Shown: positions 117 through 19,716 of the stretch, piece by piece | How the letters are laid out: the number at the start of each line of letters is the position of its first letter | How positions within the stretch are numbered: position 1 is the first letter of the stretch | From: Deltaproteobacteria bacterium | GTDB taxonomy: Bacteria; Desulfobacterota; Desulfobacteria; Desulfobacterales; Magnetomoraceae | Assembly: GCA_002753725.1 (NCBI GenBank) | Contig: PEAL01000065.1 | Span: 1 to 19,865 of the forward strand | Length of the DNA: 19,865 nt | Direction of reading: 5' to 3' | Notes under the pieces: generated by a model | Database searches by the model: none | What the model saw: only the letters and a program-made list of their open reading frames with translations | Told to the model about the DNA's origin: nothing | Program-made: the position numbers and the translations under genes

Positions 117-364
117 CCCTCTCATTATAGTCAATTACCAATCAATAAAAATGGCCTAACTAAATAGTCTAAACCTTAAAAACTTGCAATTTGGTTTATG
201 GATTCAGTGGATTCAGTTCCAGAATAACATGTTTACAGCGTGACAGTCTGCTTGTAAAATGGTATGTAAGTTTCAAAGAGATAACAAACATTCTCCCTTT
301 GAAAGAAGAGGGATCATACAACGGTCATTCGTATTATCTGACAGAAAAAAAATGCAAACATCAT

Positions 365-1793: not shown

Positions 1794-1814
1794 ATTCCTT
1801 ATTCCTTATTCCTT
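1794..1814. repeat. Three tandem copies of the 7-mer attcctt, overlapping the stop codon of the giant minus-strand gene.
   Basis: Read directly: attccttattccttattcctt. Confidence 0.4.
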
Positions 1815-2147
1815 ATAAAAAATGATGGCTTCGGCACGCCGATTTTTTAGTTTTCCTTCTGGCGTTACATTTTCTGTAATGGGGCGTGTCTCGCCATAAC
1901 CTTTAGATGTCAGTCGCTGGGATGATATGTTAAAGGTTTTAATCAGATATGTTCGGATATAATCCGCGCGTTGCTGTGAAAGCTCTACATTTTTATCTTC
2001 ATCGCCGGAATTATCTGTATGTGCTTCAATCGTCGCATAAACATCAGGATACTGATTTAATAATTTTCCCAGAGCATTGATACGAGCATGGCTGATGGGT
2101 TTAATGGCTGATGCATAAAAATGAACATTTAAATCATAATGAAGCGA
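1806..2147 (-). other. OmpA-like (OmpA_C / MotB-type) peptidoglycan-binding domain at the C-terminus of the giant protein.
   Basis: Motif string ...ATIEAHTDNSGDEDKNVELSQQRADYIRTYL...LTSKGYGETRPI...TPEGKLKNRRAEAII matches the conserved OmpA C-terminal domain signature (TD..G....N..LS..RA..V, GYGE, NRRVE). Confidence 0.8.
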
Positions 2148-5100
2148 TGTGTCTGATGTTGTCAGTTGTGCAAAGGCTGATTGAACAGGGGTTACATTAC
2201 CTGCCCGATCTCGTGCCTGGAGATGAATAAACCATCGGCCATCTTTTTGCGAGAGTGTCGTTTGGGTGATGGATTGAAAGTCACCCGATGGTATGGATGT
2301 CGGTTTTTGATCAATAACATATCGATAGTGAATGATTGGATCATTATCTTTCGCATGCCATGTCCATTGTTTTATTTTTTGAGGAATAATGTCATTAATC
2401 ATTGTATCAAAAACAGGAGGTGTATTATCCAATAATGCAGATACTGTATATACTTCACTGATATTCCCGGCCCTGTCCGTTGCCTGTACATGAATGTATC
2501 TTTTGCCATCACCCTCTGATATTTCAGCGGTATGATGGTCTTTAAAAGGCCCTGATGGCACTGAGATTTCCGATGAGTTGATGACCCATCGAAATGTGAC
2601 CTGTTGATCCATATCTGTAGCATTCCACGACCAGGTTTTCCTTTGTAAGGGTACAGGATCATCCTGAAGTCCATTAATCATCGGTTTTTGATTATCAATT
2701 ATTGCGGATACTGTTTTTACAGCACTGATATTTCCAGCGCGATCCTGTGCTTGTACATGAATATACCATCGCCCATTAACATCAGATAAGTGAGCCTGAA
2801 ATACAGGGCTAAAAACAGTTGATGGTGACGTTTCAGGTTTCTGATCAATATGATATCGGTACAAGATATTAGAATCAGCATCCCTGGCGGTCCATGACCA
2901 TTGAATCTGCTTTTGGGGAATCAAATGGTCTGCCAGACCTTCTATTTCCGGAGGAATCCTATCCAATATTGCGTAAACTGTTTTCGTGGCACTGACATTC
3001 CCAGCCCGGTCTTTGCCCTGGATATGAAAATACCAGACACCATTCGCATTGGAGAGGCCTGTTTCATTTGTGTGCGTAAAAGAACCTGTTGGCTCAGCAT
3101 CTGAGCGTTGATCAAGAAGCCATCGATAAGCAATCTGTTCATCATCATCGTTGGCGCGCCATTGCCATTGTTTGGATTGAACAGGTGTATCGTCATTTGA
3201 AAGGTGAGTGATTACGGGTGGTTTGTTATCTAACACACAATGGACAGTCAATACATTACTGATATTAAACGCCCTGTCTTGTGCCTGAACATGAAGATAA
3301 AACAAACCATTTTCATTTTCAAGCCGTGCTTGGGTTATTTGTGAGAATTGATTTTTCGGTACAGTGTAAGCATTTTGGTCAATGATATATCGATATTGAA
3401 TAAAGAGATCGTTATCTTTAGCGCTCCATTGCCATTGTTTGGATGTTGAAGGGGTGGTATCACTGGCAAGTTGTATTAGAATCGGTGGCTCATTATCCAA
3501 AATTGCTGAAACAGTTTTGACAGAACTTAGATTTCCTGCATAATCTTTCGCCTGAACATGTAAATACCATGTGCCATCTTTATCCGCGATGCGTGCCTTT
3601 GTGATATTTTTGAATAGGCCTGTTGGTATGGACTCAAAATTTTGATCAATAACATATCGATATCGAACATCAGTATGGGCATCATGGCTGTTCCAGTGCC
3701 ATTCTTTTTGTTGATGAGGAACTTTATCATCTTCCAGTCCAAAAATCTTTGGCGATTGATTATCCAATATGGCCACCGCTGTGGTAACCGGACTGATATT
3801 CCCTGCCTGATCTTTTGCCTGAATATGAATATACCATTTTCCATTGGATTGTTTCAACGTGGCTTGAGAGATATTCGTGTATTCTCCAGTTGGCACAGAA
3901 TCAGATGTCTGATCAATGGTATATCGATACAAGCATGACACTTCATTGGCAGCATCCCACGACCAGACCTTTTTTTGAACGGGAGTAAGATAATCAGTAA
4001 TGCCTGTGATTATGGGAGATGAACGATCGATGATTGCAGACACAGTCACGATATCACTCAAATTTCCAGCACGATCCCGTGCCTGTACATGGAGGTACCA
4101 CGTCCCTTCACCATTGGACAATTCACATGAATGATGATCGGTAAATGAGGTTGTTGGAATACCATTTGCCAATTGATCGACCTGATAGCGATATTGAGTA
4201 TATGAGTCATTATCCTCAACCTGCCATTGCCAATGGATGGTTTGTGCTGGTATTAAAACGTTATTCAAGCCGGTTATGACCGGAAGGGTAGTGTCTATCA
4301 CGATAGAAGCAGTGACAACATCACTGATATTATTCGCTGAGTCTCTGGCCTGTACATGAATAAACCAGAGCCCCTCCGTGTGGGACAGGCTCGCCTGGTT
4401 GATGGAATTAAACGAACCGGTTGGTTGTGATCGTTGTTTTTGATCAATGGAATATCGATAGTAAATGTTTGCATCAGTATCTTTGCCATACCATCTCCAA
4501 GTATGTGATTTCATAGGCTGATGAATATCTGAAAGCCCTGAAAGACTTGGGGCTGTACGATCAATAATGGCTGAAACGGTTTTGATGGGACTCAAATTAC
4601 CGGCGGTATCTTTAGCCTGTATGGATAAATAAAACACGCCTTCACCATCAGAAAAACTAACGGTATTGGTATAAGCAAACGTACCCGATGGTTTAATTTC
4701 AGGATGTTGTGTAATCACATAACGATACATCACATGAGGATCATCATCTCTTGCACGCCATGACCATTTTTTTTGCTGTGTTGGAATGGGATCAACGTTG
4801 ATATCCACTATTTCAGGGGCAATAGTATCCAGTCTGGCAGAGACAGTGACCACATTACTTACATTATCCGCCCTGTCCCTGGCCTGAACATGTAAATAGA
4901 ATATGCCATGATTATTGGAAATCTCTGCATATGTTATATCTGAAAAAGGACCAGAAGGTGTATATTGCTCAAAAGGGTTGATCGCATATCGATACATCAG
5001 TTCTGTATCCTGATCCTTTCCATGCCATATCCATTTTTTTTGGCTGACAGGGTTTATATCACTGGATAAGCCTTCAATGGTTGGAGGAATCGTATCAAAA

Positions 5101-8100
5101 TTTGCCCATACTGTTTGGGATGTGCTGATATTGCCAGCCCGGTCTTTTGACTGAACGTGAAGGAACCATCGGCCATTAATATTCTTTCCTGTAAAACAGG
5201 TCGTGGTATCAAAATCAGTTGAAAATTGTGCCTCGGAATGTTGAGTGAACGAATAACGCGATTTTACGCCGCTATCCTGATCAATTAATTGCCAGGCCCA
5301 TTGTTTGGACTGAACAGGATATGCAACAGAGGATAGCCCTTTTATTACAGGAGGAGTATTATCAAGAATACTTGACACTGTAACGATTTCACTGGTATTC
5401 CCAGCGCGATCCAGTGCCTGAACATGAATAAACCATGTCCCTTCAGCATTAGATAGATGAGCAGAGGTCACATGGGTAAAGGATGTTGTGGGGGATGCAT
5501 CGGCACGTTGATCGATAATATAGCGATGCAATACGTCTGGATCATTATCCAGGGTTGCCCATGTCCATGATTGATTCCTGACTGGATACAGATTATCTGT
5601 AAGTCCGATAATTTCAGGCGGGGTGTTGTCAATGATTGCAGAAACTGTGATGTGTTCACTAAGATTTCCTGCCTGATCTTTTGCCATAACATGCAAATAC
5701 CAGATGCCATCACCTTCTTCAATCGTGGCCTTGGCTTCTGGTTTGAATTGTCCAGATGGCGGTGCATCTTTATTTTGATCGATAGAAAATTGATAACTGA
5801 CGGTTTCATCCAAAGGTTCAGAATACCATGTCCATTTTTTCTGGTGTTTAGGTATAGAATCGTTTGAAAGCCCTTTAATGATTGGTGCTGTGTTATCCAA
5901 AATGGCTGAAACGCGAATTATTTCACTCAAATTGCCAGCACGGTCTTTTGCTTGAAGAAAAAGATAGCACATCTGATTTTCACCAGAGATTTCAACAGAT
6001 GTTTCATGCGTGTAAGAGCCGAACGGTTGTTTCTCAAGCGTTTTACTGATAGCATACCGATAGTCAAGGTATGGATCAGCATCATGGCCTTTCCATTGCC
6101 ATTTTTTTCTTTGTGTGGGAACGGGGTCATCATCTAACCCACTAATAACCGGGGCTGTGTTGTCCAGCAATTCAGAAACAGTGGCAACATTACTTTCATT
6201 TCCTGCGCGATCAATGGCCTGAACATGCAAATACCATCGGCCATCACCACTGGATATCGATGCCGTGTTCGTATATTGATAATTACCATCAGGTAAGGCG
6301 TTTTCATTTTGGGTGATTAAATACCGGTATACAATTTGGTGATCAGCGTCTTTTGCCTGCCAGTTCCATTTTATTTTTTTTACAGGATGCATTACAGGAG
6401 ATAATCCCGTGACTACCGGCTTTGTTGTATCGATGAGAGCTTTCACTGTAACCACAGAACTTAAATTGCCAGCAGTATCTTGTGCCTGTACATGGAGATA
6501 CCAAAGACCATCCGTTTCATAAATGGGTGTTGAATGAATCGTTGAAAAAATTCCCAATGGTTTGGAATCATAGAATTGATCAATTAAAATTCGAAAGCGA
6601 ACAGTGGGGTCAGCATCTTCTGCATGCCAAGAAAAAGATTTACTTCTTACCGGCGTTACTTCCCTGTCATCAGAAAGCCCCTTAATAACAGGCGGTAATT
6701 GATCCAACAGACAATATACATGATAAACCTTACTGAGATTGCCTGCCCAGTCTTTTGCCTGAACATGAAGATACCACCGCCCATCGACATCTTTAATTGT
6801 TGCGGTAGTTGTTTTTTTAAATTCTGTTTCAATGAGGGACTGTTCTTTCTGGTCAATGGTATACCGAAATGTCGCATTTTCATTTGAATGGGTTTTCCAG
6901 GCCCATATTTTCTGTTTTTTAGGAACGGAATCATTTTCAATACCCACAATTCTGGGAGGCACATTATCCAGAACCACAGAGACCGTGACAACATTGCTGA
7001 GATTTCCGGCGCGATCTGTTGCCTGAACATGGAGATAGCATAAGCCTTCAATATCTTTGGCAATCGCAGAATGTGTTGAATTAAACGGTCCTTCAGGTTT
7101 TGAATCAGGATGATGATCGATCAAATACCTGAAAAGAATAGTGGTATCATCATCCTTTGCTGACCATGTCCATCGTTTAACTGTTGTGGACGTTAATGAA
7201 TCAGACAGGCCGATAATTATTGGCGCTGTGGTATCAAGAATTGTCTGGACAGTGACAGTATTGCTTTCATTGCCTGCTGTATCGCATGCCTGAAGATGTA
7301 GATACCAGATACCATCATCATAATAATTTTTATCCAGTTGAATCATGCGGGTGAATGTATATGCACCTTTTGGATGAGAATCGGCAAACTGATCGACAAG
7401 ATATCGAAACCGAACATTGGGGTCAGCATCGTTTGCTGATAGCATCCATTTTTGTATGGACACTGGCGTAATCGAATGAGCAATATCATTAATGAGTGGT
7501 GGTATGGTGTCAATTGTAATGGATAACAACTCAGAAATACTGATATTTTCATCACTCTGGGTTTGATAATGTGCAGATAATTCATGTGTCCCTTCAGTCA
7601 AATCAATGTTAAACTGAAAAATATCTGCTGTGATGACTGTCGTTGCCCCTGATAAAGCATTTCCATCAACAAGAAGAACCACTGTCTGGTCGATATCTCC
7701 GAATCCTTGAATGTGTAAATTTTTAGATTGGCGGGTGATCCTATCGGTATTGAAAAAACCTGTATCATGTTCAGGTTCCAAGGATAGATTATATGGTTTT
7801 GGGTAGTGTGAATAAATGCCTTCTCCCCAGAAAATGTCAGCATGTTCTGTTTTATTCACCGCATTTTGTTTATTTCGAATATTGGTATACGCAATTGAAA
7901 TGGCATTGGAATCAGCATATTCAGACAAATAAATTTCATAGGGCATTTGTTCATTCCACAACGTTGCATGCGTCATAGTAAGAGAAGAATGATAAGCAAA
8001 AATGGCAGAGGAAACAGGGGCATCATTAACGGGGTGATTTTGGGTTAAAACCGTGCGAAATATATTTATCGTTGATTTTTGGGCGTAAATGGCTATTCCG

Positions 8101-8693
8101 GAAGTGGCTTTATTGTTCATCAATGTGACATTCGATAAGATCATATCTGAACCCTGACAATATATCCCTGCACCTGAACTGTTTGCTGTATTATGGACAA
8201 TGGCTGTTTGAGTGAGAGTCATGTTAGCGTACACGCAATATATACCACCGCCTTGTTCTGCGGTATTTTCTTTGATAATGACATTCACGAATTGAGGTGA
8301 TGCACCTCTGCAATAGACCCCTCCGCCGAGGTAAAAGGATTTTATGTCAGCTTTTCCATTGATGAGCGAAACATTACTGATGTGCGTTTTTTGATCCACA
8401 ATACCACCCAATGATTCATCAAAAAGCAACACACTTGAACGTTGGCAGCCATCAATGATTGTCTTGTTCTTGTCTTCACCAGACAGCTGAATGCCATTGA
8501 CTTTTGGCCATATAATATTTTCACGATAATTCCCATTTTTAATCAAAATGGTATCGTTGGATGTTGCAGAATTCAATGCTTGCTGGATGGTTTTAAAATC
8601 CGCTGGTACATGTAACATACGTGCATATGTGATTGAACATGCAAATAATAAAAAAAGAATACAAAATAAATATGGTTTAATGCTTGTTCTCAT
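1806..8693 (-). CDS. Giant cell-surface protein of about 2295 aa. It has a signal peptide, a right-handed parallel beta-helix domain, about 20 tandem Ig-like (beta-sandwich) repeats and a C-terminal OmpA-like peptidoglycan-binding domain. Adhesin-like.
   Basis: Continuous ORF 1806-8804. The start is assigned to the ATG at 8693, where the N-terminus MRTSIKPYLFCILFLLFACSITYA-RM is a classic Sec signal peptide. The upstream in-frame part overlaps the preceding gene. The C-terminus carries the OmpA/MotB-type motif HTDNSGDEDKNVELSQQRADYIRTYL...GYGETRP...EGKLKNRRAE. The N-terminal region has GGGVYC/GGGIYC/GAGIYC motifs typical of parallel beta-helix (PbH1) repeats. The middle carries about 20 repeats of consensus W.W...D.D....YRY.IDQ....P.G.F....A.I...DG.WYLHVQA.D.AGN.S.V.TVSAILDNTPP.I.GL. 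Confidence 0.85.
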   Translation of the reverse strand: MRTSIKPYLFCILFLLFACSITYARMLHVPADFKTIQQALNSATSNDTILIKNGNYRENIIWPKVNGIQLSGEDKNKTIIDGCQRSSVLLFDESLGGIVDQKTHISNVSLINGKADIKSFYLGGGVYCRGASPQFVNVIIKENTAEQGGGIYCVYANMTLTQTAIVHNTANSSGAGIYCQGSDMILSNVTLMNNKATSGIAIYAQKSTINIFRTVLTQNHPVNDAPVSSAIFAYHSSLTMTHATLWNEQMPYEIYLSEYADSNAISIAYTNIRNKQNAVNKTEHADIFWGEGIYSHYPKPYNLSLEPEHDTGFFNTDRITRQSKNLHIQGFGDIDQTVVLLVDGNALSGATTVITADIFQFNIDLTEGTHELSAHYQTQSDENISISELLSITIDTIPPLINDIAHSITPVSIQKWMLSANDADPNVRFRYLVDQFADSHPKGAYTFTRMIQLDKNYYDDGIWYLHLQACDTAGNESNTVTVQTILDTTAPIIIGLSDSLTSTTVKRWTWSAKDDDTTILFRYLIDHHPDSKPEGPFNSTHSAIAKDIEGLCYLHVQATDRAGNLSNVVTVSVVLDNVPPRIVGIENDSVPKKQKIWAWKTHSNENATFRYTIDQKEQSLIETEFKKTTTATIKDVDGRWYLHVQAKDWAGNLSKVYHVYCLLDQLPPVIKGLSDDREVTPVRSKSFSWHAEDADPTVRFRILIDQFYDSKPLGIFSTIHSTPIYETDGLWYLHVQAQDTAGNLSSVVTVKALIDTTKPVVTGLSPVMHPVKKIKWNWQAKDADHQIVYRYLITQNENALPDGNYQYTNTASISSGDGRWYLHVQAIDRAGNESNVATVSELLDNTAPVISGLDDDPVPTQRKKWQWKGHDADPYLDYRYAISKTLEKQPFGSYTHETSVEISGENQMCYLFLQAKDRAGNLSEIIRVSAILDNTAPIIKGLSNDSIPKHQKKWTWYSEPLDETVSYQFSIDQNKDAPPSGQFKPEAKATIEEGDGIWYLHVMAKDQAGNLSEHITVSAIIDNTPPEIIGLTDNLYPVRNQSWTWATLDNDPDVLHRYIIDQRADASPTTSFTHVTSAHLSNAEGTWFIHVQALDRAGNTSEIVTVSSILDNTPPVIKGLSSVAYPVQSKQWAWQLIDQDSGVKSRYSFTQHSEAQFSTDFDTTTCFTGKNINGRWFLHVQSKDRAGNISTSQTVWANFDTIPPTIEGLSSDINPVSQKKWIWHGKDQDTELMYRYAINPFEQYTPSGPFSDITYAEISNNHGIFYLHVQARDRADNVSNVVTVSARLDTIAPEIVDINVDPIPTQQKKWSWRARDDDPHVMYRYVITQHPEIKPSGTFAYTNTVSFSDGEGVFYLSIQAKDTAGNLSPIKTVSAIIDRTAPSLSGLSDIHQPMKSHTWRWYGKDTDANIYYRYSIDQKQRSQPTGSFNSINQASLSHTEGLWFIHVQARDSANNISDVVTASIVIDTTLPVITGLNNVLIPAQTIHWQWQVEDNDSYTQYRYQVDQLANGIPTTSFTDHHSCELSNGEGTWYLHVQARDRAGNLSDIVTVSAIIDRSSPIITGITDYLTPVQKKVWSWDAANEVSCLYRYTIDQTSDSVPTGEYTNISQATLKQSNGKWYIHIQAKDQAGNISPVTTAVAILDNQSPKIFGLEDDKVPHQQKEWHWNSHDAHTDVRYRYVIDQNFESIPTGLFKNITKARIADKDGTWYLHVQAKDYAGNLSSVKTVSAILDNEPPILIQLASDTTPSTSKQWQWSAKDNDLFIQYRYIIDQNAYTVPKNQFSQITQARLENENGLFYLHVQAQDRAFNISNVLTVHCVLDNKPPVITHLSNDDTPVQSKQWQWRANDDDEQIAYRWLLDQRSDAEPTGSFTHTNETGLSNANGVWYFHIQGKDRAGNVSATKTVYAILDRIPPEIEGLADHLIPQKQIQWSWTARDADSNILYRYHIDQKPETSPSTVFSPVFQAHLSDVNGRWYIHVQAQDRAGNISAVKTVSAIIDNQKPMINGLQDDPVPLQRKTWSWNATDMDQQVTFRWVINSSEISVPSGPFKDHHTAEISEGDGKRYIHVQATDRAGNISEVYTVSALLDNTPPVFDTMINDIIPQKIKQWTWHAKDNDPIIHYRYVIDQKPTSIPSGDFQSITQTTLSQKDGRWFIHLQARDRAGNVTPVQSAFAQLTTSDTSLHYDLNVHFYASAIKPISHARINALGKLLNQYPDVYATIEAHTDNSGDEDKNVELSQQRADYIRTYLIKTFNISSQRLTSKGYGETRPITENVTPEGKLKNRRAEAIIFYKE
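2190..7505 (-). repeat. Tandem array of about 20 diverged ~265-bp repeats, each encoding an ~88-aa Ig-like domain with a YLHVQA.D.AGN.S motif.
   Basis: The motif WYLHVQA[KRQT]D[RQT]AGN[LI]S recurs about every 88 residues in the translation. The DNA shows recurring blocks such as ccattgccattgtttgga and cctgaacatg(a/t)a(g/a)ataccat at the same period. Confidence 0.8.
7604..8612 (-). other. Right-handed parallel beta-helix (pectate-lyase-fold, PbH1-repeat) domain in the N-terminal part of the giant protein.
   Basis: Consecutive short repeats with hydrophobic/Gly ladders: GGGVYCRGASPQFVNVII, GGGIYCVYANMTLTQTAIVHN, GAGIYCQGSDMILSNVTLMNN, SGIAIYAQKSTINIFRTVLTQN. Confidence 0.6.
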
Positions 8694-8704: not shown

Positions 8705-10858
8705 TTAATTGACGACAATCGAATAAAAATAATAAAAATAACCTGCTATCATAAAAAGAGATAAAAAAAGTCCTGTACATTTTACTCTTGGTATTGCCTG
8801 ACAAAAGCCTTTTCGATTCAAGCCGGCAATAATAAGTGTCAACACAAATGAAAGGCCTGTCATAAGGTAAAGAAGAATAAACCAGTGATCAAATGGGATA
8901 AGATAATCAACAGATATTTCAGACAGGAAGTAATATAAGAACGATACCACTCCCAGGCATGACAGATGGGCAAACATCGCAATCAGTGTATGGGAAGGAA
9001 TGATGAATAAAAGGCAGGATAAAAGACCCATAATAATGCATCCAGGAACAAAACATCGCAACCACTGATGAAAAGAATCTCGATGAATAAGGATTTGAAT
9101 TCTATAATCCGGGTTATGTTCTTGATTAAATTGCGAATAATCAACCTTAGGTTGCGTTGTCATGCCATAAGCATAGCAGCGATTCAGTTTCCAGTTGGAA
9201 AGGTTAAATCGATCATTGTCATTGAGACTGATTTCTTTGTTAATATATCTCATTTCATTACTTTTTAATGTATTATGATAAAAATGAATACCTAACTTTT
9301 GTTTATCAAAAGGGTATGTATGGTACAAAAAATTTATCTTAAAGGATCCCTTAATGCTGTATTTTTTATACAAGACACCATCAAGGGTTCCACTTTCAAC
9401 AGGATCGTCTAAAACAACAGGTGTTGTTGCATTTAAAAAGCAAATATCTGCGGGGTCGATTACCGGGGTGTCATACAAGAATGTCAGAAAAAAATGAGCC
9501 GTAAAGAACGATTCTTTTATATCCAGTTCAACGATTTCAGTTTTTACCTGAACAATCGATACGTGTTGAATATCTGATTCATAAGGATTTGTATGGTTTA
9601 ATTTAGATTTCATGTCCATCAGAAACTGTTGGTGAAAAGGAACAAGTACCCCTTTTTGATAGTGACCCAGACCTGTATTTTTTATTGCATTTCCATTATC
9701 ATCAAAAAAGATATCACCGCAGATTCCTTTAAAAGCATAATCAGGTTTCTTTATATCGGTAAGAAAATTTTTTATTTGACGTCTGTACTGGTAAGATCGT
9801 GCAGTGGGGTCAATTTCCATTTTTCTAAGAATATCTGCCATCAGAAGTGTGGCATCATAATAATTTGTTGCAATAGACGATGGAACGTTACGATATTTTT
9901 CATAATAGGCCTTAAAAAAGTCTACAGATTGAGAATTAAACAAATAATTCGCAAAGATATCATTTGCAGTTGTGAAAACACCATCTGAATAATAACCAGG
10001 AATTGATTTTTCCAGGGCAATTGTTCGTAATTCGTTTTGAAACGATTCATATGAAAATACATGACCATTGGTTATAAAAAAGTGAGGATCAAAAGCGTTT
10101 AATTTTTCAATAATCTGAACAGCCAGGCGATCAGATGTTGCAATAAAAACAGAGCTTTTTGCTTTAGATGTTTTAAACATTCTAACGATGGTTTGCAGTT
10201 GTGGATAAATATTTTTTTCTTCATCAATATCAATTGTATTTTCAATTTTAATGCCGTTATTTTTGAAAAAATTCATATATGTATTTTTGATATCACGACT
10301 ATAAATATCTTTAGATGCAATAATGGTTACAGGTGACCATTTACAATACTGCTTTGAAAACATAGCCAGAAATGTTGCCTGATGGAGAGAGGATGGTATG
10401 GATCGAAAATACCATTCATTGTTTAATGTAACATTCGTTGCTGGTGCTGAGGCGGTAATCGCGGGGATACCTTCTTTTAAATAAACCTGCCCGGCAGAAA
10501 AACTGGCAGCGCTGCTATAATGCCCAATAACAAAAAGCAGATGGTCATTTCTTGAGAATGAATTGGCAACTTTCATGGCAAGATTGGTTTTATTCATGTC
10601 ATCTTTATAGATATATTTCAATTTTTTACCATCAATACCGCCATTTGCATTGATTTTTTCTATACATAAATCAATACCCCGAAGCATTTCTTTGCCATAT
10701 TCTTCATCCGCCCCACTGAATGGGCCTGCAACACCAAACAGGCACACATCTTGATCACTGTGATAGATATCAAATACACTCAATAGTAGTAGTATACCGA
10801 TAAACAGTATCACAATTAAAATAATCAATAGGCCTTTATTTAAAATGAATTGTTTCAT
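8705..10858 (-). CDS. Fusion protein of 717 aa. An N-terminal type I periplasmic binding domain (Leu/Ile/Val-binding, LIVBP/ANF-receptor-like) is joined to a pentameric ligand-gated ion channel core (extracellular beta-sandwich plus 4-TM pore domain).
   Basis: N-terminal TM/signal segment, then the LIVBP-like signature GPFSGADEEYGKEMLRGIDLCIEKINANGGIDGKKLKYIYKDD...LLFVIGHYSSAAS...AITASA. Residues about 432-595 match the pLGIC extracellular-domain pattern: beta1 VSIVQVKTEIVELDIKESFFTAHFFLTFLYDTP, then the Pro-loop hallmark YPFDKQKL (codons 9316-9305), then a pre-M1 Arg in IQILIHRDS. M1 with its conserved Pro follows (WLRCFVPGCIIMGLLSCLLFIIP), then three more TM helices with a short M3-M4 loop, as in prokaryotic GLIC/ELIC-type channels. 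Confidence 0.8.
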   Translation of the reverse strand: MKQFILNKGLLIILIVILFIGILLLLSVFDIYHSDQDVCLFGVAGPFSGADEEYGKEMLRGIDLCIEKINANGGIDGKKLKYIYKDDMNKTNLAMKVANSFSRNDHLLFVIGHYSSAASFSAGQVYLKEGIPAITASAPATNVTLNNEWYFRSIPSSLHQATFLAMFSKQYCKWSPVTIIASKDIYSRDIKNTYMNFFKNNGIKIENTIDIDEEKNIYPQLQTIVRMFKTSKAKSSVFIATSDRLAVQIIEKLNAFDPHFFITNGHVFSYESFQNELRTIALEKSIPGYYSDGVFTTANDIFANYLFNSQSVDFFKAYYEKYRNVPSSIATNYYDATLLMADILRKMEIDPTARSYQYRRQIKNFLTDIKKPDYAFKGICGDIFFDDNGNAIKNTGLGHYQKGVLVPFHQQFLMDMKSKLNHTNPYESDIQHVSIVQVKTEIVELDIKESFFTAHFFLTFLYDTPVIDPADICFLNATTPVVLDDPVESGTLDGVLYKKYSIKGSFKINFLYHTYPFDKQKLGIHFYHNTLKSNEMRYINKEISLNDNDRFNLSNWKLNRCYAYGMTTQPKVDYSQFNQEHNPDYRIQILIHRDSFHQWLRCFVPGCIIMGLLSCLLFIIPSHTLIAMFAHLSCLGVVSFLYYFLSEISVDYLIPFDHWFILLYLMTGLSFVLTLIIAGLNRKGFCQAIPRVKCTGLFLSLFMIAGYFYYFYSIVVN

Positions 10859-10889: not shown

Positions 10890-13037
10890 TTAAAGCGGAA
10901 AACAACAGTTGACCACATAAAAAGATATCATCATTATCGTAATCAAACATGCTGCCTTTCCCAAAAATTGAACGAACGCCATTGATTGCTTATAATGATG
11001 GATCGATAAGCCTATCAGTCCCATTTGAAACATGATTGTCAACCCAATAAAACCATACAAACACATAAACAGCATTTCAGAGAATGTCAGAAATGGTATG
11101 TGTAATTTGAAATATAAATGGCATACAGTAGTGATCATCAGGAATATGATATTGATCACCAATGAAATTTTTATTCGATGCACAGGACAAAAATAACTGA
11201 TCGATGTCAGTAGAAAAAGAATAAGACAGGCAATAAAAATAAGCTTTTCCTGCTGATTCAGGCGCCTTTGAATATGAATATCAACAGCGAATTCAGATGC
11301 GTTATTCTTAATATCTCCTGACAATGGGCTTTTTATTAAATAAGGCATCGCGTCCACAGATAGCCATGTTTCAGAATTCAATTTAAAACTTATTTTATTT
11401 AGCTGATCAATAGCAAATATAAACGTGTTTGTGTTTACGCTTGTATCCCGAAAACTTATGGTCAGTTTTTGGCTGTCTATGGGATATCGTTTAAGGTCAA
11501 AGTGATGATAAAATACACTATCCACGGTGTATAACAGATGTGTGGTACCTTGTTTATTCATAGTTTTTTTAGGATTTTTCAATACAAGCGGAGAAACAGC
11601 GTTGGTAAATTGAATCCATTCAGGTTGAAAATGCTTTTGAAAACTAAACCAGAGATTAAACCGGGCATGAAATGTACCATCTATCGTATTGATTTGATTT
11701 AATTGAATATCATCTATCCTTACATACACTAATTGTTTTTTGATAAAATAATCATCATTGTTTGCCATAACGTCATTATCTAATGCTTTTTGAATCAAAT
11801 CATTGGAAATATCATTGAGTGAAACAGCGATGTATTGATGAAAGGCGGGAATATAATGGCCCTTGTATAATTGAGTGACAATCATTGACTTTTTCGTTTC
11901 GCCAACACCATTAAAAAATATTTTTCCGGTTAAGCCCTCCACACAGTGATTCCTATCATAGAATGTTTCAAGTGCATTTTTGAATTTTTTTCTGATGTCC
12001 CGGATAGCCCCCTGTATCTCAATTTTTCTTAATGCTTCAATGCTAACATGTGCCAGATCATAAGATGTCGTACTGATTAATGAAGGCGGTACTCCATAAA
12101 AGGTATAATAATTCTTTTCAAAAATTCTATTGATTTGTTTTGAAAAATACTGAGAAAACAACGATACAGAGTAGATACCATTTGAATAAAAACCGGGTGA
12201 GGATTGTTCTTTGGGATACGCTTTGAATCCATCGATAAAAATTTGAGATGCCAAGGAATCTGCGCCCATAATGATTTGATTCAGTTGCTTCTTTTTCAAA
12301 CCAACCACCAATTTTACAGACGTATCAGCGTGGGTTGCCAAAAAAAACATATCAGGTTTTAACGCATGCGTATCAATGGCCTGTACAATAGTATCAACCT
12401 GATCATCCATACTCGTTGAACTCGAATCCAATGGATATTGTTCAACAATCTCAATTCCTTTTTCCAGTGCTTGTTCTGTAAATACTGCTGCTAAATTTTT
12501 ACCATATGCCCCTGTATCATAAACAATCGTTGCGGTTTTAAGATTCAATGCTGATTGTGCGTAAGCAGCAAGAAAATCACTTTGACAGGAATTTGGTGGG
12601 ACAATTCTGAACAACCATTCATTCATAATCGGCAAGTCATCAGATGTTGCTGAACCGGTTATTGATGGAATCATGTTGTTTTCATAAATAGAGGCAGCCG
12701 CAGTGCAGCAGGAACTGAAATAATGTCCCAGAACAAAAAGAATGTCCTTGTTTCGAACAATTTGTTTTGCTGCACCGACAGCGCCTTCTTCGGTGCCTTT
12801 ATCGTCAAAAACAAGCAGCTTGATCTGGCTGCCATGAAGTCCTCCTGAGGCGTTTATTTGATCAATATAGAATTGTACCCCTTTAACCATTTCATTTCCA
12901 TAAAAAGACTGGGAACCACTGAATGTACTCGCAACCGCAATATAAAGCGTTTTCTTGCCATAATACAAATGAATCGTATAAAATATGGAAATCAACATGC
13001 TTATCAGTAAAATTATAATAATATATTTTTTCATCAT
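10890..13037 (-). CDS. Paralogous LIVBP-like periplasmic binding domain / pentameric ligand-gated ion channel fusion, 716 aa.
   Basis: Start assigned to the ATG at 13037 (MMKKYIIIILLISMLISIFY...), 2 nt after the upstream stop. The longer ORF to 13094 would overlap the upstream gene. LIVBP signature TFSGSQSFYGNEMVKGVQFYIDQINASGGLHGSQIKLLVFDD...ILFVLGHYFSS...SITGSA. pLGIC hallmarks: VYVRIDDIQLNQINTIDGTFHARFNLWFSF, Pro-loop YPIDSQKL (11486-11475), pre-M1 IHIQRR, M1 LIFIACLILFLLTSISYFCP, and three more TM helices at the C-terminus. Confidence 0.75.
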   Translation of the reverse strand: MMKKYIIIILLISMLISIFYTIHLYYGKKTLYIAVASTFSGSQSFYGNEMVKGVQFYIDQINASGGLHGSQIKLLVFDDKGTEEGAVGAAKQIVRNKDILFVLGHYFSSCCTAAASIYENNMIPSITGSATSDDLPIMNEWLFRIVPPNSCQSDFLAAYAQSALNLKTATIVYDTGAYGKNLAAVFTEQALEKGIEIVEQYPLDSSSTSMDDQVDTIVQAIDTHALKPDMFFLATHADTSVKLVVGLKKKQLNQIIMGADSLASQIFIDGFKAYPKEQSSPGFYSNGIYSVSLFSQYFSKQINRIFEKNYYTFYGVPPSLISTTSYDLAHVSIEALRKIEIQGAIRDIRKKFKNALETFYDRNHCVEGLTGKIFFNGVGETKKSMIVTQLYKGHYIPAFHQYIAVSLNDISNDLIQKALDNDVMANNDDYFIKKQLVYVRIDDIQLNQINTIDGTFHARFNLWFSFQKHFQPEWIQFTNAVSPLVLKNPKKTMNKQGTTHLLYTVDSVFYHHFDLKRYPIDSQKLTISFRDTSVNTNTFIFAIDQLNKISFKLNSETWLSVDAMPYLIKSPLSGDIKNNASEFAVDIHIQRRLNQQEKLIFIACLILFLLTSISYFCPVHRIKISLVINIIFLMITTVCHLYFKLHIPFLTFSEMLFMCLYGFIGLTIMFQMGLIGLSIHHYKQSMAFVQFLGKAACLITIMMISFYVVNCCFPL

Positions 13038-13039
13038 AT

Positions 13040-15721
13040 TTAATTCAGTTGCCAATCTTTGATATTCTGTCCACCAAGAGCCATATGAGACCAATTTTTA
13101 ATGCGTGGTTTTATAAGGTAATGGTCGGTTTCATAGAAAATGGGGATTACAAGCGTCTCTCTTTGGGTCAGAATCTCATCGATCATTAAATAATAGTCTT
13201 TTCTTAAATGTAAATTTTTTTCTTTTATGGCTTTATTCAACACATCAGATAATTCTGTATTGATATAACTGTTCTGGCGGCTAAGCTTGTTATATGAATC
13301 AAACAAAAAACTATTGGCATCAGGAAAAGTCGCATACCAGTCAGAAATGAAAATATGAGCCTGTCTGGGATTGTATGAACCAGGTTCTGTAAGACCGATG
13401 ACAGTGGATTGAAGATTCAATCTTTTTTTAAGTAGTAATGAAATCGCTTTGGCAATTTGTTTATGGGAATCATGGATTCCTGAATCAATTAGAATTGCAG
13501 GGCATCCTTTTCCGCCAGGATAGCCCGCTTCGGCTAACATTTTCATGGCATGAGTGGGATGGTAAACAGGCCGTTTCTCCTGACTTGACAGCAATAATAA
13601 ATCAGGGGGTATAAACATTTTCATTGCCTTTTGTTGCCCATGAATGACGAACCTGGTAATAAATGAGCGATCAATAACAGACGCAATGGCTTTTCGTAAC
13701 AAAACATTATCCACAGGGGATTGATTCACATTGAAAAAAAGGCCGGTTGTAGAAAAATTGGTACGTTCTTGATAGTCATGTCGGGTTTCAGGTTGCTTTT
13801 TGACCGAATCAAGAAAACGCGATGGGATGTTTATAAAAGCCCCCCCAAGAATATCCAGTTGATTGTTTTGATACATATGCAAAGCAAGCAGGCTGTTCAT
13901 GATAACGTTATAACGCACTTCCTGAATGGCAACAGTTGAAGCATCATAATAGCGGTCATTTTTTCGTAAAATAATCAAAGAGCCTTTTTCATGACAAGCC
14001 AGTTGAAAGGGACCATTACTGACAATATGTTCAGGGGCTGTCCATTCAGCAGCCCATTTTTGAATCGTTGCCGAAGGCAGAGGGCTGAAAACAGGCAGTC
14101 CGGTGATTGAAGGAAAAAATGCAGCAGGATAGGACAGGATAAAATCAATGGTATAATCATCAATAACGTTGACCCCCAGTTTTGATGCATCTTTGATGAA
14201 TCCTAGATGAATGTCCTGGGCATTTTTGAGTATGAATAAGTGTTTTACATCCGGGCATTGGGTTTCAGGGGTCAAATTTCTAACTATTGCAAATCTCAGA
14301 TCGTGAGCTGTCACCGGCTGTCCGTTTGTCCAGAACACATTTTTTCGCAATTTAAACCGGTAACGATCTAAGGTTTCATTCGGTTCCCAACTCGTGGCAA
14401 AGTCCGGGGAAGACTGATAGGTGTCAGGATGGTATTGAGTCAGGCGTATAAACAATTGCTTTGATAATTCAGTTGTTATTTTATCATGGGCAAGCCCCGG
14501 GTCTAATCGTGAAACATCATTGTTACAAAACCTGTTTATATTGAAAGAATCGACCAGGTCAAAAAAATCATCCTGCTTTTTTTCTTTTCGATTAATAATG
14601 ACAAATTTTCCATCTTCATATTTTTTAAAAAATAAAGCGGATGGCCCGATATTTCCTTGTCGTGTCAGATGATATTGACTTAAAACACCATCCCAATGTT
14701 CCATGAATCTAAGAGTTGTATTTAAAACCATTGGTAAACATGAATTACTTTTTTCCATTGACGTTTTAAGCAAATGAATCAGATCATAACCCCGGGCAGC
14801 AAATGTTTCAGGCTCAACGCCAAAGGCTTGCGTAAAACTGGAAACAAAATCTTGTGTTAATTTTCTGGGAAGTGTGTTGTCAAAGTTGCTTGGGATGATG
14901 GTTCCTTCAGCTTTTTTTCCAGTATTACTCCAAAAATAGCGTGTGTCAATTTCATCGGTGGCCATAATTGGGGTATTGATATTCAACTCTCTCATCTGAT
15001 TTACCACCAATGCTGCGATGTTATCTCTGCATAATAATAAAACAATGTCAAAGGATTCATTTTTTAAATCACTTAAGATATCTCTGAAATTTGTTTCAGA
15101 TCGAGAAAAGGATTGTTGAGATACAATCGCAAGGCCTTTTTGTGTGGCCTCTTCATAAAAAATATCAGCAAGAATCTTACTGGTTTTCTGGCGGTCATTA
15201 AGGATAATAATGCGCTGATAGTGGTTTTGAGAGAAACATTCAGCAATTCTTCTAACATATACTTGATCTGGCATATAATTATTAAAAATATAGGCCCCGC
15301 CATAGCGTAATAAATCCGCCCCTGTAGAAAAAAATAATATGCCAGCTTCTTTGTATACGATTGATGCAGAAATAGCATTTTGAGGACTAAAATGTCCGAT
15401 AACAGCAAAAACATTTTTATTTTTAGCTAATTTTTCTGCAATGCGAATGGATGTTTTTTCATCATCATAATCATAAAACAAAAGCGGTCTGATCCTTTTC
15501 CCCATAACGCCGCCATCGCTGTTTATTTCATCCATAGCCAGTTTAACGCCATGAGCAAACTGTGTGGTAGCAGGGAATGCGTCCACAATTCCAATGAAAA
15601 GATCATCGGTTGATCGGGTCAAATGCTTCATGCGCTCTTCATTGGAAATAACCTTGTTACATGAAAAAAATGTAAGAAGGAGTACAATAAAAGCAAAATG
15701 TAAAACGATGATTGGTTTCAT
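13040..15721 (-). CDS. Predicted lipoprotein of 893 aa made of two complete solute-binding domains. Residues about 38-375 are type I (LIVBP-like). Residues about 395-893 are solute-binding protein family 5 (OppA/DppA/NikA-like peptide or nickel-binding type).
   Basis: Signal peptide with a Cys at residue 21 (LLLTFFSC, a non-canonical lipobox). LIVBP signature IGIVDAFPATTQFAHGVKLAMDEINSDGGVMGKRIRPLLFYDYDD...VFAVIGHFSPQ...FFSTGA. The second half begins LDPGLAHDKITTELSKQLFIRLTQYHPDTYQSSPDFATSWEPNETLDRYRFKLRKNVFWTNGQPVTAHDLRFAI. That matches the conserved N-terminal block of family-5 SBPs (LDPA.A.D..S...L.......G.I.P.LA.SWE.S.DG..Y.F.LRKGV.FHDG.P.TA.DV.FS) and continues to the end of the protein. 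Confidence 0.8.
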   Translation of the reverse strand: MKPIIVLHFAFIVLLLTFFSCNKVISNEERMKHLTRSTDDLFIGIVDAFPATTQFAHGVKLAMDEINSDGGVMGKRIRPLLFYDYDDEKTSIRIAEKLAKNKNVFAVIGHFSPQNAISASIVYKEAGILFFSTGADLLRYGGAYIFNNYMPDQVYVRRIAECFSQNHYQRIIILNDRQKTSKILADIFYEEATQKGLAIVSQQSFSRSETNFRDILSDLKNESFDIVLLLCRDNIAALVVNQMRELNINTPIMATDEIDTRYFWSNTGKKAEGTIIPSNFDNTLPRKLTQDFVSSFTQAFGVEPETFAARGYDLIHLLKTSMEKSNSCLPMVLNTTLRFMEHWDGVLSQYHLTRQGNIGPSALFFKKYEDGKFVIINRKEKKQDDFFDLVDSFNINRFCNNDVSRLDPGLAHDKITTELSKQLFIRLTQYHPDTYQSSPDFATSWEPNETLDRYRFKLRKNVFWTNGQPVTAHDLRFAIVRNLTPETQCPDVKHLFILKNAQDIHLGFIKDASKLGVNVIDDYTIDFILSYPAAFFPSITGLPVFSPLPSATIQKWAAEWTAPEHIVSNGPFQLACHEKGSLIILRKNDRYYDASTVAIQEVRYNVIMNSLLALHMYQNNQLDILGGAFINIPSRFLDSVKKQPETRHDYQERTNFSTTGLFFNVNQSPVDNVLLRKAIASVIDRSFITRFVIHGQQKAMKMFIPPDLLLLSSQEKRPVYHPTHAMKMLAEAGYPGGKGCPAILIDSGIHDSHKQIAKAISLLLKKRLNLQSTVIGLTEPGSYNPRQAHIFISDWYATFPDANSFLFDSYNKLSRQNSYINTELSDVLNKAIKEKNLHLRKDYYLMIDEILTQRETLVIPIFYETDHYLIKPRIKNWSHMALGGQNIKDWQLN

Positions 15722-15746: not shown

Positions 15747-16616
15747 TTAATTTTTATCACCATTTGTTTCTGTATTCAGAATTAAAGGCAATCCATTCTT
15801 GCCACTGCCAATAATAATAATTTTTGAATTTTGTGATTCTGCAAGTTTTTCAGTGGCTTTAATCCCTTGCCAATTGAGATATTGTTCTTTATTGAAAAGG
15901 GATGATGCAATGGTGTTCAAATGATCTCGGATACCTTCTGCTTCAATTCTTTTTCGGGTTGCTTCTTTTTTTTCTCGCTCAATAACATAAGTATGGGCTT
16001 CCGCCAGATGTTTTTGTTTGATTTTATTACGAATGGATTCGGCCACTTCTTCAGGAAGTATGATCCCCCGAACAAGAACATCATCAATATTGATATAGCG
16101 TTGAGCGACCTGTTCTATGGCTTTATTGATAGCCTCCACAATTAATTTTCTTCCCGTGGTGTAAACTTCTTCAGCATTCAATGTACCAATAATTTCACGA
16201 ATAACAGCTTCTATTTCAGGAATAATCACCTTATCCGCATACTCCATTCCCACTTGCTGATGTAATACACCAAGAAGTTTATATTCAGGCGCATAGCGAA
16301 TAGAGAGTTTAATATGAACTTGCAAACCATTTTTAGTGAGGACATCCATTTCCGGTTTAATTTCCTGGATACGAACATTATAGACGTACATTTTATCCCA
16401 GGGAAGAATTAAGTGAAGACCTTCTGAATAAACAGAAAGGATATCTGTTCCACCAAAAAAACGACTCCAAAACACCGCTGCTTCACCTGGATAAATATTG
16501 TATACAATCATATTAAACAGGAAAGCAAAGGTCAATAAAGCAATCAAAATGGTCAGAATGAGAGAAAAGGTATAATTTTTTAATTTGATAAAAAAGTTCT
16601 TGAACCTGTTTTTCAT
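15747..16616 (-). CDS. SPFH/band-7 (stomatin/prohibitin/HflC-like) membrane-scaffold protein, about 290 aa.
   Basis: N-terminal single TM segment (FSLILTILIALLTFAFLF) followed by the SPFH core YPGEAAVFWSRFFGGTDILSVYSEGLHLILPWDKMYVYNVRIQE...DVLTKNGLQVHIKLSIRY and a C-terminal coiled-coil-like KQKHLAEAHTYVIEREKKEATRKRIEAEGIRD. Start taken at the ATG at 16616 (MKNRFKNFF...). The ORF is open up to 16697. Confidence 0.8.
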   Translation of the reverse strand: MKNRFKNFFIKLKNYTFSLILTILIALLTFAFLFNMIVYNIYPGEAAVFWSRFFGGTDILSVYSEGLHLILPWDKMYVYNVRIQEIKPEMDVLTKNGLQVHIKLSIRYAPEYKLLGVLHQQVGMEYADKVIIPEIEAVIREIIGTLNAEEVYTTGRKLIVEAINKAIEQVAQRYINIDDVLVRGIILPEEVAESIRNKIKQKHLAEAHTYVIEREKKEATRKRIEAEGIRDHLNTIASSLFNKEQYLNWQGIKATEKLAESQNSKIIIIGSGKNGLPLILNTETNGDKN

Positions 16617-18213: not shown

Positions 18214-19716
18214 ATGATTCTTCACATCTCAAAAGTATTTATTTTTTTTATTTATTGCATGGTTGGTTACCTACTGTTGATTGTTCCTGGCCTTTGCCAG
18301 GAAGAGCCGGGAGAAACAGCTTTTGATTTGGGGGTGTTTGCTTTTGAAGACAAGGATTTTGATTCCGCCGAAAGACATTTGTTAAAGGCACTGTCCTTAG
18401 CCCCTGATCAGCCCTTTTACTGCCTTTTTCTGGGCAAGGTTTACCTGGCCATCAATCAGCTTGATAAGGCTGAAAAATTTTTGACAAAAGCCTTTCAGCT
18501 AAATCCAATTATGAACGGCCTGAATTATGACCTGGCATACCTGACATTTAAGCAATCACGCTTTAGCGATGCGGCAGATCGTTTTTCAAAAATTGTCGAA
18601 AACGATCCCCTTACCCAAAATGTACTGGCTTGTTACTATGCCGGCATATCATTTTTTGAATGTAATCAATATGAAAAGGCCATTCAATATCTTATGCGTG
18701 CTGCCGAACGTAGCCCCACAATTAAACCCAACAGTATGTTTTACTGTGGTATCTGCTATTATAAACAACATCAAACCCAAAAGGCCGTTCAACATTTTGA
18801 ATATGTGTTGATGCATGCCCCCGCCGATGAATTAAAAGACCATGCAAAAAAATGGCTTATTGCCCTTCGGGCTCAAAAATCTCAGGAACAGCCCTTTGAT
18901 TGTTTAGTCAAACTCTCGGTTCAGGCAGATGATAATGTCATGATCGTTTCCCCTGACTGGATTACCGGAGACGAATCTGATGGTGTTATGCAATTTTATC
19001 TTGCGGGAAAATATTTTTTTACCCCAAAGGATCGCCATCGTTTGGGGGTCGGATTTCGGCATTATCAAACCGTTCATCAGGATCTTTCAGAATTTGACCT
19101 GATGGGAAATATCATTGATATTGCTTATTCATTCCAAATGCCTTTGATTACGCTGGGCCTGAAATACTCACCATCCGCTTACAGGCTCGATGGCAGACAA
19201 TATATAACACGACACCAGTGGAAAGGTCATGTATTGTGGAACGTTTCGGATAACCTGATGAATCGTTTTGCTTATTCCTGTTATATCCAAAATCATGATG
19301 AAAACAGTGAGCGGGATGGGCACACGCATGACATTTCAATGGATATGTATTATAGGCTTAAAAAACATAAAATGAAACTATTGGCAGGTTTTTCAGCAGA
19401 GGAAAACCATCGAAATGAAATGCGATATCAATATGAGGACTTAAAATTCACTCTGGGCCTGACCAAAAAACTTTTGTATACATTGACATTTCATAGTAAG
19501 CTGGGTATTTCTCACAGACGCCACGAGCAATGGGATGAATTGGGCTTTAAGCGAAAGGATAACAAATTTGAGTTTTCATGTACTATTTTAAAGCCGGTCT
19601 GGCAAAAAGGTATGGAAATAGGGTTTGATTACAGTTATACAAAAAATAATTCAATTTTAGACGCATACGATTATCGACGAAATATTTTTGGTATATCGTT
19701 TTTATATCATTATTAA
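18214..19716 (+). CDS. Outer-membrane protein of 500 aa: signal peptide, an N-terminal TPR-repeat domain of about 200 aa, and a C-terminal beta-barrel-like domain of about 280 aa.
   Basis: Hydrophobic N-terminus (IFFIYCMVGYLLLIVPGLC). TPR-like helical repeats (AERHLLKALSLAPDQPFYCLFLGKVYLAINQLDKAEKFLTKAFQLNP..., AIQYLMRAAERSP..., AVQHFEYVLMHAP). The C-terminal half is rich in alternating aromatic/polar strands and ends with the aromatic tail ISFLYHY typical of OM barrels. The start is 15 nt after the FAD-dehydrogenase stop. Confidence 0.7.
   Translation: MILHISKVFIFFIYCMVGYLLLIVPGLCQEEPGETAFDLGVFAFEDKDFDSAERHLLKALSLAPDQPFYCLFLGKVYLAINQLDKAEKFLTKAFQLNPIMNGLNYDLAYLTFKQSRFSDAADRFSKIVENDPLTQNVLACYYAGISFFECNQYEKAIQYLMRAAERSPTIKPNSMFYCGICYYKQHQTQKAVQHFEYVLMHAPADELKDHAKKWLIALRAQKSQEQPFDCLVKLSVQADDNVMIVSPDWITGDESDGVMQFYLAGKYFFTPKDRHRLGVGFRHYQTVHQDLSEFDLMGNIIDIAYSFQMPLITLGLKYSPSAYRLDGRQYITRHQWKGHVLWNVSDNLMNRFAYSCYIQNHDENSERDGHTHDISMDMYYRLKKHKMKLLAGFSAEENHRNEMRYQYEDLKFTLGLTKKLLYTLTFHSKLGISHRRHEQWDELGFKRKDNKFEFSCTILKPVWQKGMEIGFDYSYTKNNSILDAYDYRRNIFGISFLYHY

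Follow-up and report, generated by a model that had tools for sequence, protein, structure and literature searches.

Architecture of a two-module binding lipoprotein

The window, by which we mean the whole stretch of DNA analysed here (19,865 nucleotides; positions 1 to 19,865 of contig PEAL01000065.1, assembly GCA_002753725.1, from a deltaproteobacterium of the Magnetomoraceae), contains five genes arranged head to tail on the (-) strand and separated by gaps of 25, 2, 31 and 11 nt. In order, they encode a prohibitin-like SPFH protein, a fusion of two solute-binding proteins (SBPs), two predicted channel subunits and a giant repeat protein. The fusion, which is the subject of this work, is an 893-codon open reading frame (ORF) without interruption at 13040..15721 (-), and its product is a predicted lipoprotein by its lipobox pattern. 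Signal peptide and lipobox, assigned by sequence pattern, occupy residues 1-21 (MKPIIVLHFAFIVLLLTFFS-C21; 15659..15721 (-)); the lipobox reads LTFFS-C21, and Cys21 is retained in at least 90% of 25 homologues. Next come a LIVBP-like type I binding protein (the N-half, residues ~36-378; 14588..15616 (-)), an inter-module linker of ~15 flexible residues (~379-393; 14543..14587 (-)), recognised by low predicted local distance difference test (pLDDT) values and low identity, and an OppA-like family-5 SBP, or SBP5 (the C-half, residues ~394-893; 13043..14542 (-)). The OppA fold is a member of the type II periplasmic binding protein (PBP-II) superfamily.

Pfam assigns fusion residues 53-367 to Peripla_BP_6 (PF13458; E 5.8e-30, 105.5 bits against a cut-off of 31.7), covering positions 19-337 of the 343 in the profile, and residues 438-810 to SBP_bac_5 (PF00496; E 2.4e-62, 211.6 bits against a cut-off of 32.4). 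The NCBIfam OppA model extends the second match, with residues 391-875 covering model positions 37-522 of 543; the C-half is therefore full length. Among PDB sequences, the N-half matches 4mlc/4q6b at 3.5e-40 nearly end to end (8-353 of the 356 residues of 4mlc), while the C-half matches Borrelia OppA3 (1e-61), OppAIV and Salmonella OppA (9e-43). The conserved block at the start of the family-5 half, quoted in the original prediction, is present as LDPG...SWEP...YRFKLRKNVFWTNGQPVTAHDLRF.

An AlphaFold2 model built with 25 homologues has a mean pLDDT of 84.9 with both halves confident; the N-half lies mostly above 85, and values below 50 are confined to the lipobox region, linker residues 379-391 and two short loops. 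The predicted TM-score (pTM) of 0.56 reflects two well-folded modules whose mutual orientation is undefined. In Foldseek comparisons, the C-half superposes on OppA, DppE and MppA with target TM-scores of 0.76-0.89, the best superpositions being with unliganded open forms. After the signal peptide, residues 36-893 are fully covered by the two SBP folds, and no permease membrane domain is present. Pfam, the OppA model, PDB matches and AlphaFold thus agree with the original prediction, made from sequence alone, that one lipoprotein concatenates two complete, unrelated SBPs, and the two profiles it had proposed to run both score far above their curated thresholds.

Conservation of the fused gene

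The same single-ORF architecture is found in more than 40 independent assemblies at 34-99% identity. A search of 5.8 billion clustered proteins (NCBI, ENA, JGI and Logan) returned 27 full-length two-domain proteins, again 34-99% identical, a scan of species-representative genomes added at least 15 further full-length genomic copies, and ~30 clusters were matched end to end when 1.84 billion representatives at 50% identity were searched exhaustively with HMMER; counts from the genome and metagenome scans are samples and lower bounds, not censuses. Genomic copies are carried by Desulfonema limicola, Ca. Moduliflexus, Ca. Electrothrix, metagenome-assembled genomes (MAGs) labelled Desulfosudis and Desulfatirhabdium, several Desulfobacterales MAGs and the complete chromosome of Desulfonema magnum, which is a cultured carrier with the fusion at ~7,927,400-7,930,160 of NZ_CP061800.1 (locus L020). 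An exact-sequence look-up of the window fusion gave no match, and a 99% relative (P0001) was used instead. Over 16.8 kb, the window and contig JADFYV010000091.1 from Ca. Magnetomorum sp. MAG GCA_015232875.1 (locus L001) share 99.875% nucleotide identity, with 17 mismatches and 4 gaps, and the same 893-aa ORF is present there. By this match, the DNA comes from a population of multicellular magnetotactic prokaryotes.

A frameshift or a chimeric contig that joined two neighbouring SBP genes would produce such an ORF artificially, and the junction had been singled out for this check, which we made by comparison. The junction is alignable in all homologues and the linker is nearly constant in length; mean pairwise identity is 45% in either half and 30% in the linker. 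With one ORF across so many independent assemblies and such a range of identity, a complete genome included, an assembly or sequencing artefact is so improbable that we give it virtually no weight. The fusion is a genuine, evolutionarily conserved gene.

Three longer fusions of 946-1,030 aa (L015:2735-5575, L016:8620-11472 and L018:6658-9750) carry ~50-130 extra residues past the start of the SBP5 half, outside the inter-domain linker. In the L015 protein, Pfam still places SBP_bac_5 from residue 439, and the matches in the representative library split near profile position 512-562.

The tandem had been called unusual. The two-class architecture is indeed real and rare, although polypeptides with several SBP modules are as such not unique. 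The representative-library pass also yielded other multi-SBP proteins (P0126, P0133, P0171 and P0194). The types seen are SBP5 in two copies, SBP5 in four copies (2,704-2,843 aa, one of which starts with BTAD and AAA_16 domains) and Peripla_BP_6 in three copies (1,188 aa). A 1,672-aa protein combines a beta-helix/NosD region with Peripla_BP_6 and SBP5 in the same order as in the fusion.

Ligand-site residues

In a HMMER alignment of the C-half to Salmonella OppA (1b05), OppA Asp419 is aligned to Thr798 of the fusion (codon at 13328..13330 (-)) and Arg413 to Ile792. In OppA, Asp419 forms the salt bridge to the peptide N-terminus and Arg413 binds the C-terminal carboxylate. Across 41 family members, the motif R..WCADYPDA is kept in most fusions, in most stand-alone SBP5 proteins of the Beggiatoaceae and in an SBP5-MscS fusion described below. 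In the clade of the window protein, R..WCADY is replaced by ISDWYATF (the window), DYSASY or GWHCNY. The N-half of this clade is altered as well: GHF[SD]P (GHFSP in the window) occurs only here, where relatives and 4mlc have GHxxS, and a loop with the motif SPGATxP is three residues shorter only here, the placement of the deletion differing between MAFFT and HMMER. The serine of GHxxS presumably corresponds to the LivJ Ser79 position, and the SPGATxP loop presumably carries LivJ Ala100-Thr102.

Taken over the whole family, the C-half resembles a binder of peptides and the N-half a binder of amino-acid-type ligands. Because the canonical anchoring residues appear to be changed in both halves, ligand sensing by the window copy is uncertain, and the ligands of its clade appear to be non-canonical or absent. 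The proposal that the protein is a dual-ligand coincidence detector is accordingly weakened for the window protein itself; most relatives keep the anchoring residues.

Neighbouring genes in the window

The gene 25 nt upstream of the fusion (15747..16616 (-)) encodes a prohibitin-like SPFH/Band_7 membrane protein of 289 aa (Band_7 E 6.5e-25; prohibitin-2 1.4e-19), with weaker matches to HflK/HflC. Its N-terminus is rich in Lys and Arg and is followed by one hydrophobic helix. By the positive-inside rule, and by likeness to prohibitin and HflK/C, the SPFH domain would be periplasmic.

On the other side, the start codon of channel subunit 1 (715 aa; 10890..13037 (-)) lies 2 nt past the fusion stop codon, and channel subunit 2 (717 aa; 8705..10858 (-)) is a paralogue 26% identical over its full length. 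Both have an N-terminal Peripla_BP_6 domain in Pfam (9.8e-38 in channel 1). At E values up to 10, Pfam does not recognise the C-terminal halves, which were identified by sequence and profile searches of the PDB. Residues 490-706 of channel 1 match sTeLIC and GLIC, single-sequence matches to these proteins reaching 1e-5 to 1e-4. A profile made from 26 channel C-terminal halves, which also supports the assignment of channel 2, matches an ELIC-GABAA chimera at 1e-17 and GLIC at ~1e-15 over ~255 positions that span the extracellular domain and the transmembrane helices. The Pro/Cys-loop motif YP[FI]D is present in the channels as YPFD or YPID, and channel 2 has YPFD. The two downstream genes are thus predicted to encode ligand-gated ion channels of the pentameric type (pLGICs) with a fused type I periplasmic binding protein (PBP-I) domain.

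The last of the five genes (1806..8693 (-)) begins 11 nt past channel 2 and encodes a giant protein of ~2,295 aa, seen in its translation and in Pfam OmpA and Big-type matches. The protein has a signal sequence, a beta-helix-like start and ~20 tandem units of ~100 aa with the motif WYLHVQA.D.AGN.S, and ends in an OmpA peptidoglycan-binding domain. The gene keeps its position in L001-L003 and is missing from fusion loci that are more distant; it probably ends the operon, in Magnetomorum-type loci only. Operon status is assigned because of spacing and synteny. A scan for promoters and terminators was of no help in this: promoter-like sites numbered 52, where 60.5 were expected, and the operon contains no clear terminator.

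Translations and Pfam show no gene for an ABC permease or ATPase in any part of the 19.9-kb window, in agreement with the original prediction. At 18214-19716 (+), a 500-aa Slam-like protein has N-terminal TPR repeats and a C-terminal beta-barrel match to SlipAM, the surface lipoprotein assembly modifier (E 4.9e-8). With this putative exporter 2.5 kb from the fusion gene, the lipoprotein might be surface-exposed; in the relatives L002 and L003, the Slam-like gene is not beside the cluster. At the far end of the window, two adjacent AT-rich ORFs (191-967 (+) and 973-1566 (+)) specify multi-pass membrane proteins, neither of which has a significant family match. Motifs common to both, such as ES/EAFNxxFxKN-D, suggest that the two are paralogues.

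Gene context across related loci

Counts of neighbours in this section are taken among the matches listed by each search. Wherever upstream sequence is available, the gene immediately preceding the fusion is a Band_7 gene (L001-L004, L006-L016, L018-L022, L024, L056, L089, L110, L131 and L137). Directly downstream, 14 of 18 non-redundant loci with downstream sequence have a PBP-pLGIC gene, with one or two such genes per locus; in locus L013, the contig breaks off soon after a channel-type PBP gene has begun. The suggestion that the protein acts on adjacent binding-protein-gated channels gains from these neighbours, but the invariant partner is the upstream SPFH gene, which the original prediction had missed. 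After Band_7, the most constant neighbours are DUF697 proteins of ~170-200 aa, often in two to three tandem copies, whose genes flank the cluster in L002, L004, L006, L008, L010-L021, L137, L169 and L171; we found no functional literature on DUF697.

The association was also viewed from the side of the channel, in a metagenome scan seeded by the channel C-terminal half (alignment A2 proved too diverse as a seed, and the narrower A3 worked), which gave at least 51 loci with enough upstream sequence to judge. Among channels shorter than 900 aa, 15 of 34 are directly preceded by a gene of this SBP5 subfamily (5 fusions and 10 stand-alone or partial proteins); among channels longer than 900 aa with extra C-terminal domains, the figure is 0 of 17. 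Long channels of 900-1,250 aa occur at L015:9876-13274 (+), at L004:15962-18523 (+) and in many metagenome loci within L116-L151. One of them comprises Peripla_BP_6, a pLGIC-like region, an MscS beta-domain and a cyclic-nucleotide-binding domain, and another comprises Peripla_BP_6, a pLGIC-like region and cNMP_binding. Adjacency of a channel to an SBP5 protein, fused or stand-alone, extends over the Desulfobacterota, Moduliflexus, the Beggiatoaceae and metagenome loci.

These data bear on whether the fusion is an orphan transport component that serves Opp/Dpp-type and Liv-type ABC importers encoded elsewhere, its neighbourhood being coincidental or loosely co-regulated. Genes for orphan SBPs are widespread, and there are SBPs, DppA among them, with roles in transport as well as in signalling. 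Each half is closely homologous to bona fide transport SBPs, and the R..WCADY, GHxxS and SPGAT motifs are retained in most family members. Yet no importer permease or ATPase lies within ~10 kb of the fusion in the window or in annotated related loci. No OppBCDF/DppBCDF-type or LivHMGF-type genes occur in the window or in those loci, no importer (BPD_transp-type) permease occurs in the Pfam-annotated related loci, and none is near the fusion in the ~25 related loci examined. One tethered polypeptide would also have to dock on two structurally different permeases, the canonical anchoring residues are lost in the window's clade, and the synteny with SPFH and pLGIC genes holds across Desulfobacterota, Moduliflexus and, for the C-half, Beggiatoaceae. 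We consider an orphan transport role quite unlikely.

ABC_tran genes do occur near some relatives and were considered as the missing importer. This was rejected, as they encode exporter-type half-transporters. One such protein of ~540 aa, with a weak ABC_membrane match and ABC_tran, is found in two distant loci (L007:8159-9778 (+) and L171:1343-2977 (+)) and might export a signal; other ABC_tran genes lie near L004 and L006.

Separate partners of each half

A PBP-pLGIC gene in Thiomargarita and Parabeggiatoa is directly preceded by the gene for a stand-alone OppA-like lipoprotein (543-599 aa), which shares 34-40% identity with the C-half of the window protein. Further stand-alone SBP5 proteins, in Thioploca, Marithrix and a second Parabeggiatoa locus, have no adjacent channel detected. 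A third arrangement is seen in a Desulfobacterales MAG (L023:961-3843 (+)), where a 960-aa protein fuses an SBP_bac_5 module of the same subfamily, 41% identical to the window C-half, to an MscS-type mechanosensitive channel; genes for a stand-alone MscS and for a PBP-pLGIC come after it. The PBP-pLGIC gene of Thiomargarita is followed by one for an OPT oligopeptide transporter (PF03169) at L026:4986-6731 (+) and L029:13857-15701 (+) (E 8e-60 and 3e-64), as a second peptide-related gene in the cluster.

For the N-half, a Band_7 gene precedes the close stand-alone relative (374-399 aa) in 3 of 3 cases, and a DUF697 gene is present in 2 of these 3 loci. No SBP5 or channel gene occurs in the available sequence of the three, one contig of which ends 54 nt past the gene. 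In terms of gene neighbourhood, then, SPFH is the partner of the N-half type and the channel that of the C-half type; the fusion brings both together. This split partnership is a testable Rosetta-stone prediction.

The channels themselves carry a type I domain, and the N-half could have arisen as a recent duplicate of it. This was rejected, as the N-half is far closer to free SBPs; against the channels' PBP domain it is 23% identical (E 5e-24). The same comparison bears on the idea that the fusion buffers ligand as a decoy, a tethered binding protein competing with the binding domains of the channels in the manner of molluscan AChBP for nicotinic receptors. The homology of the N-half to the type I domain of the channels, with which it is co-encoded, is in keeping with this. 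The much closer match of the N-half to free SBPs (4mlc, 3.5e-40) gives no indication of shared specificity, stand-alone N-half relatives occur without a channel nearby, and competition would leave both the OppA-like half and the SPFH link unexplained. A decoy role is, in our view, very unlikely.

The assignment of its own candidate protein partner to each half suits another explanation for the window's clade, in which the protein would have a structural role without sensing, as an adaptor or as a factor in assembly. Its flytraps would bind no small ligand and act as protein-interaction modules that join the SPFH scaffold to the channels, and perhaps to the giant repeat protein with its OmpA anchor, or that chaperone the assembly of these parts. 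It is in this clade only that the ligand-anchoring elements of both halves appear to have been lost together, and the same clade gained the giant OmpA-domain gene downstream. Against this, the conservation of both halves matches that in clades where the motifs are canonical, each half is predicted to fold as a complete flytrap in the open state, and the loss is judged on a few pocket residues. Family-5 SBPs that lack the aspartate, such as NikA and AccA, still bind ligands. A purely structural role is unlikely.

Discussion

The gene context points to the fusion as a tethered periplasmic accessory sensor or adaptor that links an SPFH scaffold to channels and does not feed a transporter, and we would put the chance of this being right at about even. 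That the protein is a sensor rather than a transport component, as first suggested, is favoured by the absence of an importer near the fusion in the loci examined and by the conserved link to channels, any physical or functional coupling to the channels being argued from gene context. SPFH proteins are known as scaffolds or regulators of channels and proteases, prohibitin and HflK/C forming cages and stomatin and MEC-2 acting with ion channels.

In this accessory-sensor model, the cluster would form a chemo-electrical signalling set made of an SPFH scaffold, a dual binding protein and one or two channel subunits with their own type I domain. The lipid anchor would hold the fusion at a membrane, and its two rigid Venus-flytrap modules, joined by a short flexible tether, could act independently. 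The SPFH domain, the lipoprotein and the binding and extracellular domains of the channels would all share the periplasm. There, the N-half may dock on, or be organised by, the SPFH assembly, and the C-half may signal its ligand to the channel, biasing gating as it docks on the channel's binding or extracellular domain. Its ligand would be peptide-like in most family members. Fusion of the halves would keep the sensor of the channel inside a scaffolded membrane patch, and the copy in the window's clade would either recognise a different ligand or serve mainly as an adaptor.

Several observations weigh against this assignment. The four channel-less exceptions are Electrothrix-type loci, which have SPFH and two to three DUF697 genes and no adjacent channel, so that the channel is not an obligate neighbour. 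Conversely, an SBP5 neighbour is missing from the majority of related channels below 900 aa, among the matches listed. The window fusion is without equivalents of OppA Arg413/Asp419 and presumably of LivJ Ser79, and the loop that presumably carries Ala100-Thr102 is shortened. The pTM of 0.56 is silent on any fixed arrangement of the halves. The periplasmic orientation of the SPFH domain is argued from the positive-inside rule and from likeness to prohibitin and HflK/C, and each functional step is drawn from gene context.

A bolder extension is that the cluster builds a bacterial ionotropic receptor complex. The OppA-like module would give pLGICs sensitivity to peptides or secreted signals, and the type I module would hold the sensor in a periplasmic prohibitin-like cage, allowing fast signalling from cell to cell, or from environment to membrane potential, in multicellular, filamentous or giant bacteria. 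Such a complex would have arrived independently at a counterpart to the layout of PBP-I plus PBP-II seen in glutamate receptors. The named carriers of the fusion are mostly multicellular, filamentous or giant (Ca. Magnetomorum, Desulfonema, cable bacteria and Moduliflexus), and Thiomargarita and Parabeggiatoa carry the unfused SBP5 and channel. This extension is speculative, and its likelihood is low.

Fusions of PBP-I with ligand-gated ion channels (LGICs), and LGIC operons with stand-alone PBP-II proteins, have been described, and cooperation between the two was proposed (Tasneem, Iyer, Jakobsson and Aravind, Genome Biol 2004/2005, PMC549065); the concept of cooperation is therefore not new. 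The neighbours in the window share the PBP-I-LGIC architecture of those systems. The partner here, in contrast, is a family-5 OppA-like lipoprotein, with an extra N-terminal PBP-I in Desulfobacterota and Moduliflexus, and the cluster includes prohibitin-like SPFH and DUF697 genes, whereas that paper is without mention of stomatin or Band 7. Eukaryotic ionotropic glutamate receptors offer a further likeness, as they too place a LIVBP-like type I module before a PBP-II flytrap in association with a ligand-gated channel (PMC549065). Their two modules, however, lie within the channel polypeptide, their PBP-II is LAOBP-like and their pore is a tetrameric P-loop pore, while in the cluster the tandem forms a lipoprotein of its own and the channel is pentameric. 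We regard the resemblance as an analogy and make no claim of homology for the arrangement. Papers of 2022-2025 describe the jelly-roll domain of DeCLIC as the only N-terminal domain of a pLGIC to have been studied experimentally (PMC12664993).

The proposed action on a channel also resembles the way in which SBPs stimulate membrane receptors, as in LuxP-LuxQ and BasB-BasT, reviewed in 2021 (PMC8050422). As in those pairs, the binding protein is encoded beside a membrane signalling protein and not beside a transporter. MBP-Tar and DppA-Tap are further examples, and DppA is itself a family-5 SBP. All of these use a single SBP module, unlike the hetero-class tandem described here. The receivers treated in that review are chemoreceptors, kinases and cyclases, and the term 'ion channel' is absent from it (PMC8050422).

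More than one SBP module per polypeptide is likewise a feature of homo-tandem SBPs and of importers with tandem substrate-binding domains such as GlnPQ. The binding domains of GlnPQ are fused to its permease. Where GlnPQ and the homo-tandems repeat one class, the fusion combines two, has only a lipid anchor and has no importer nearby. As for the SPFH protein, an N-terminally anchored, prohibitin-like member encoded with ion-channel genes is reminiscent of known SPFH-channel systems. NfeD, the usual operon partner of bacterial SPFH proteins, is absent here, and SPFH proteins are not known to partner a periplasmic binding protein. Our literature searches found no description of the SBP_bac_5 plus Peripla_BP_6 architecture or of the cluster. 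Nor did they find the hetero-class tandem of PBP-I and family-5 modules as a separate lipoprotein, its invariant pairing with SPFH and frequent pairing with DUF697, the split partnership of its halves, or the SBP5-MscS fusion.

Prokaryotic pentameric channels are structural models for neurotransmitter receptors, and their natural ligands and physiology are largely unknown. The cluster points to candidate ligands (peptides) and candidate partners for the PBP-fused members of this family, and Desulfonema magnum provides a cultured host in which the cluster can be tested. If the proposed coupling is true, ion channels would join the signalling proteins that are driven by SBPs, and SPFH proteins would gain a new type of periplasmic client.

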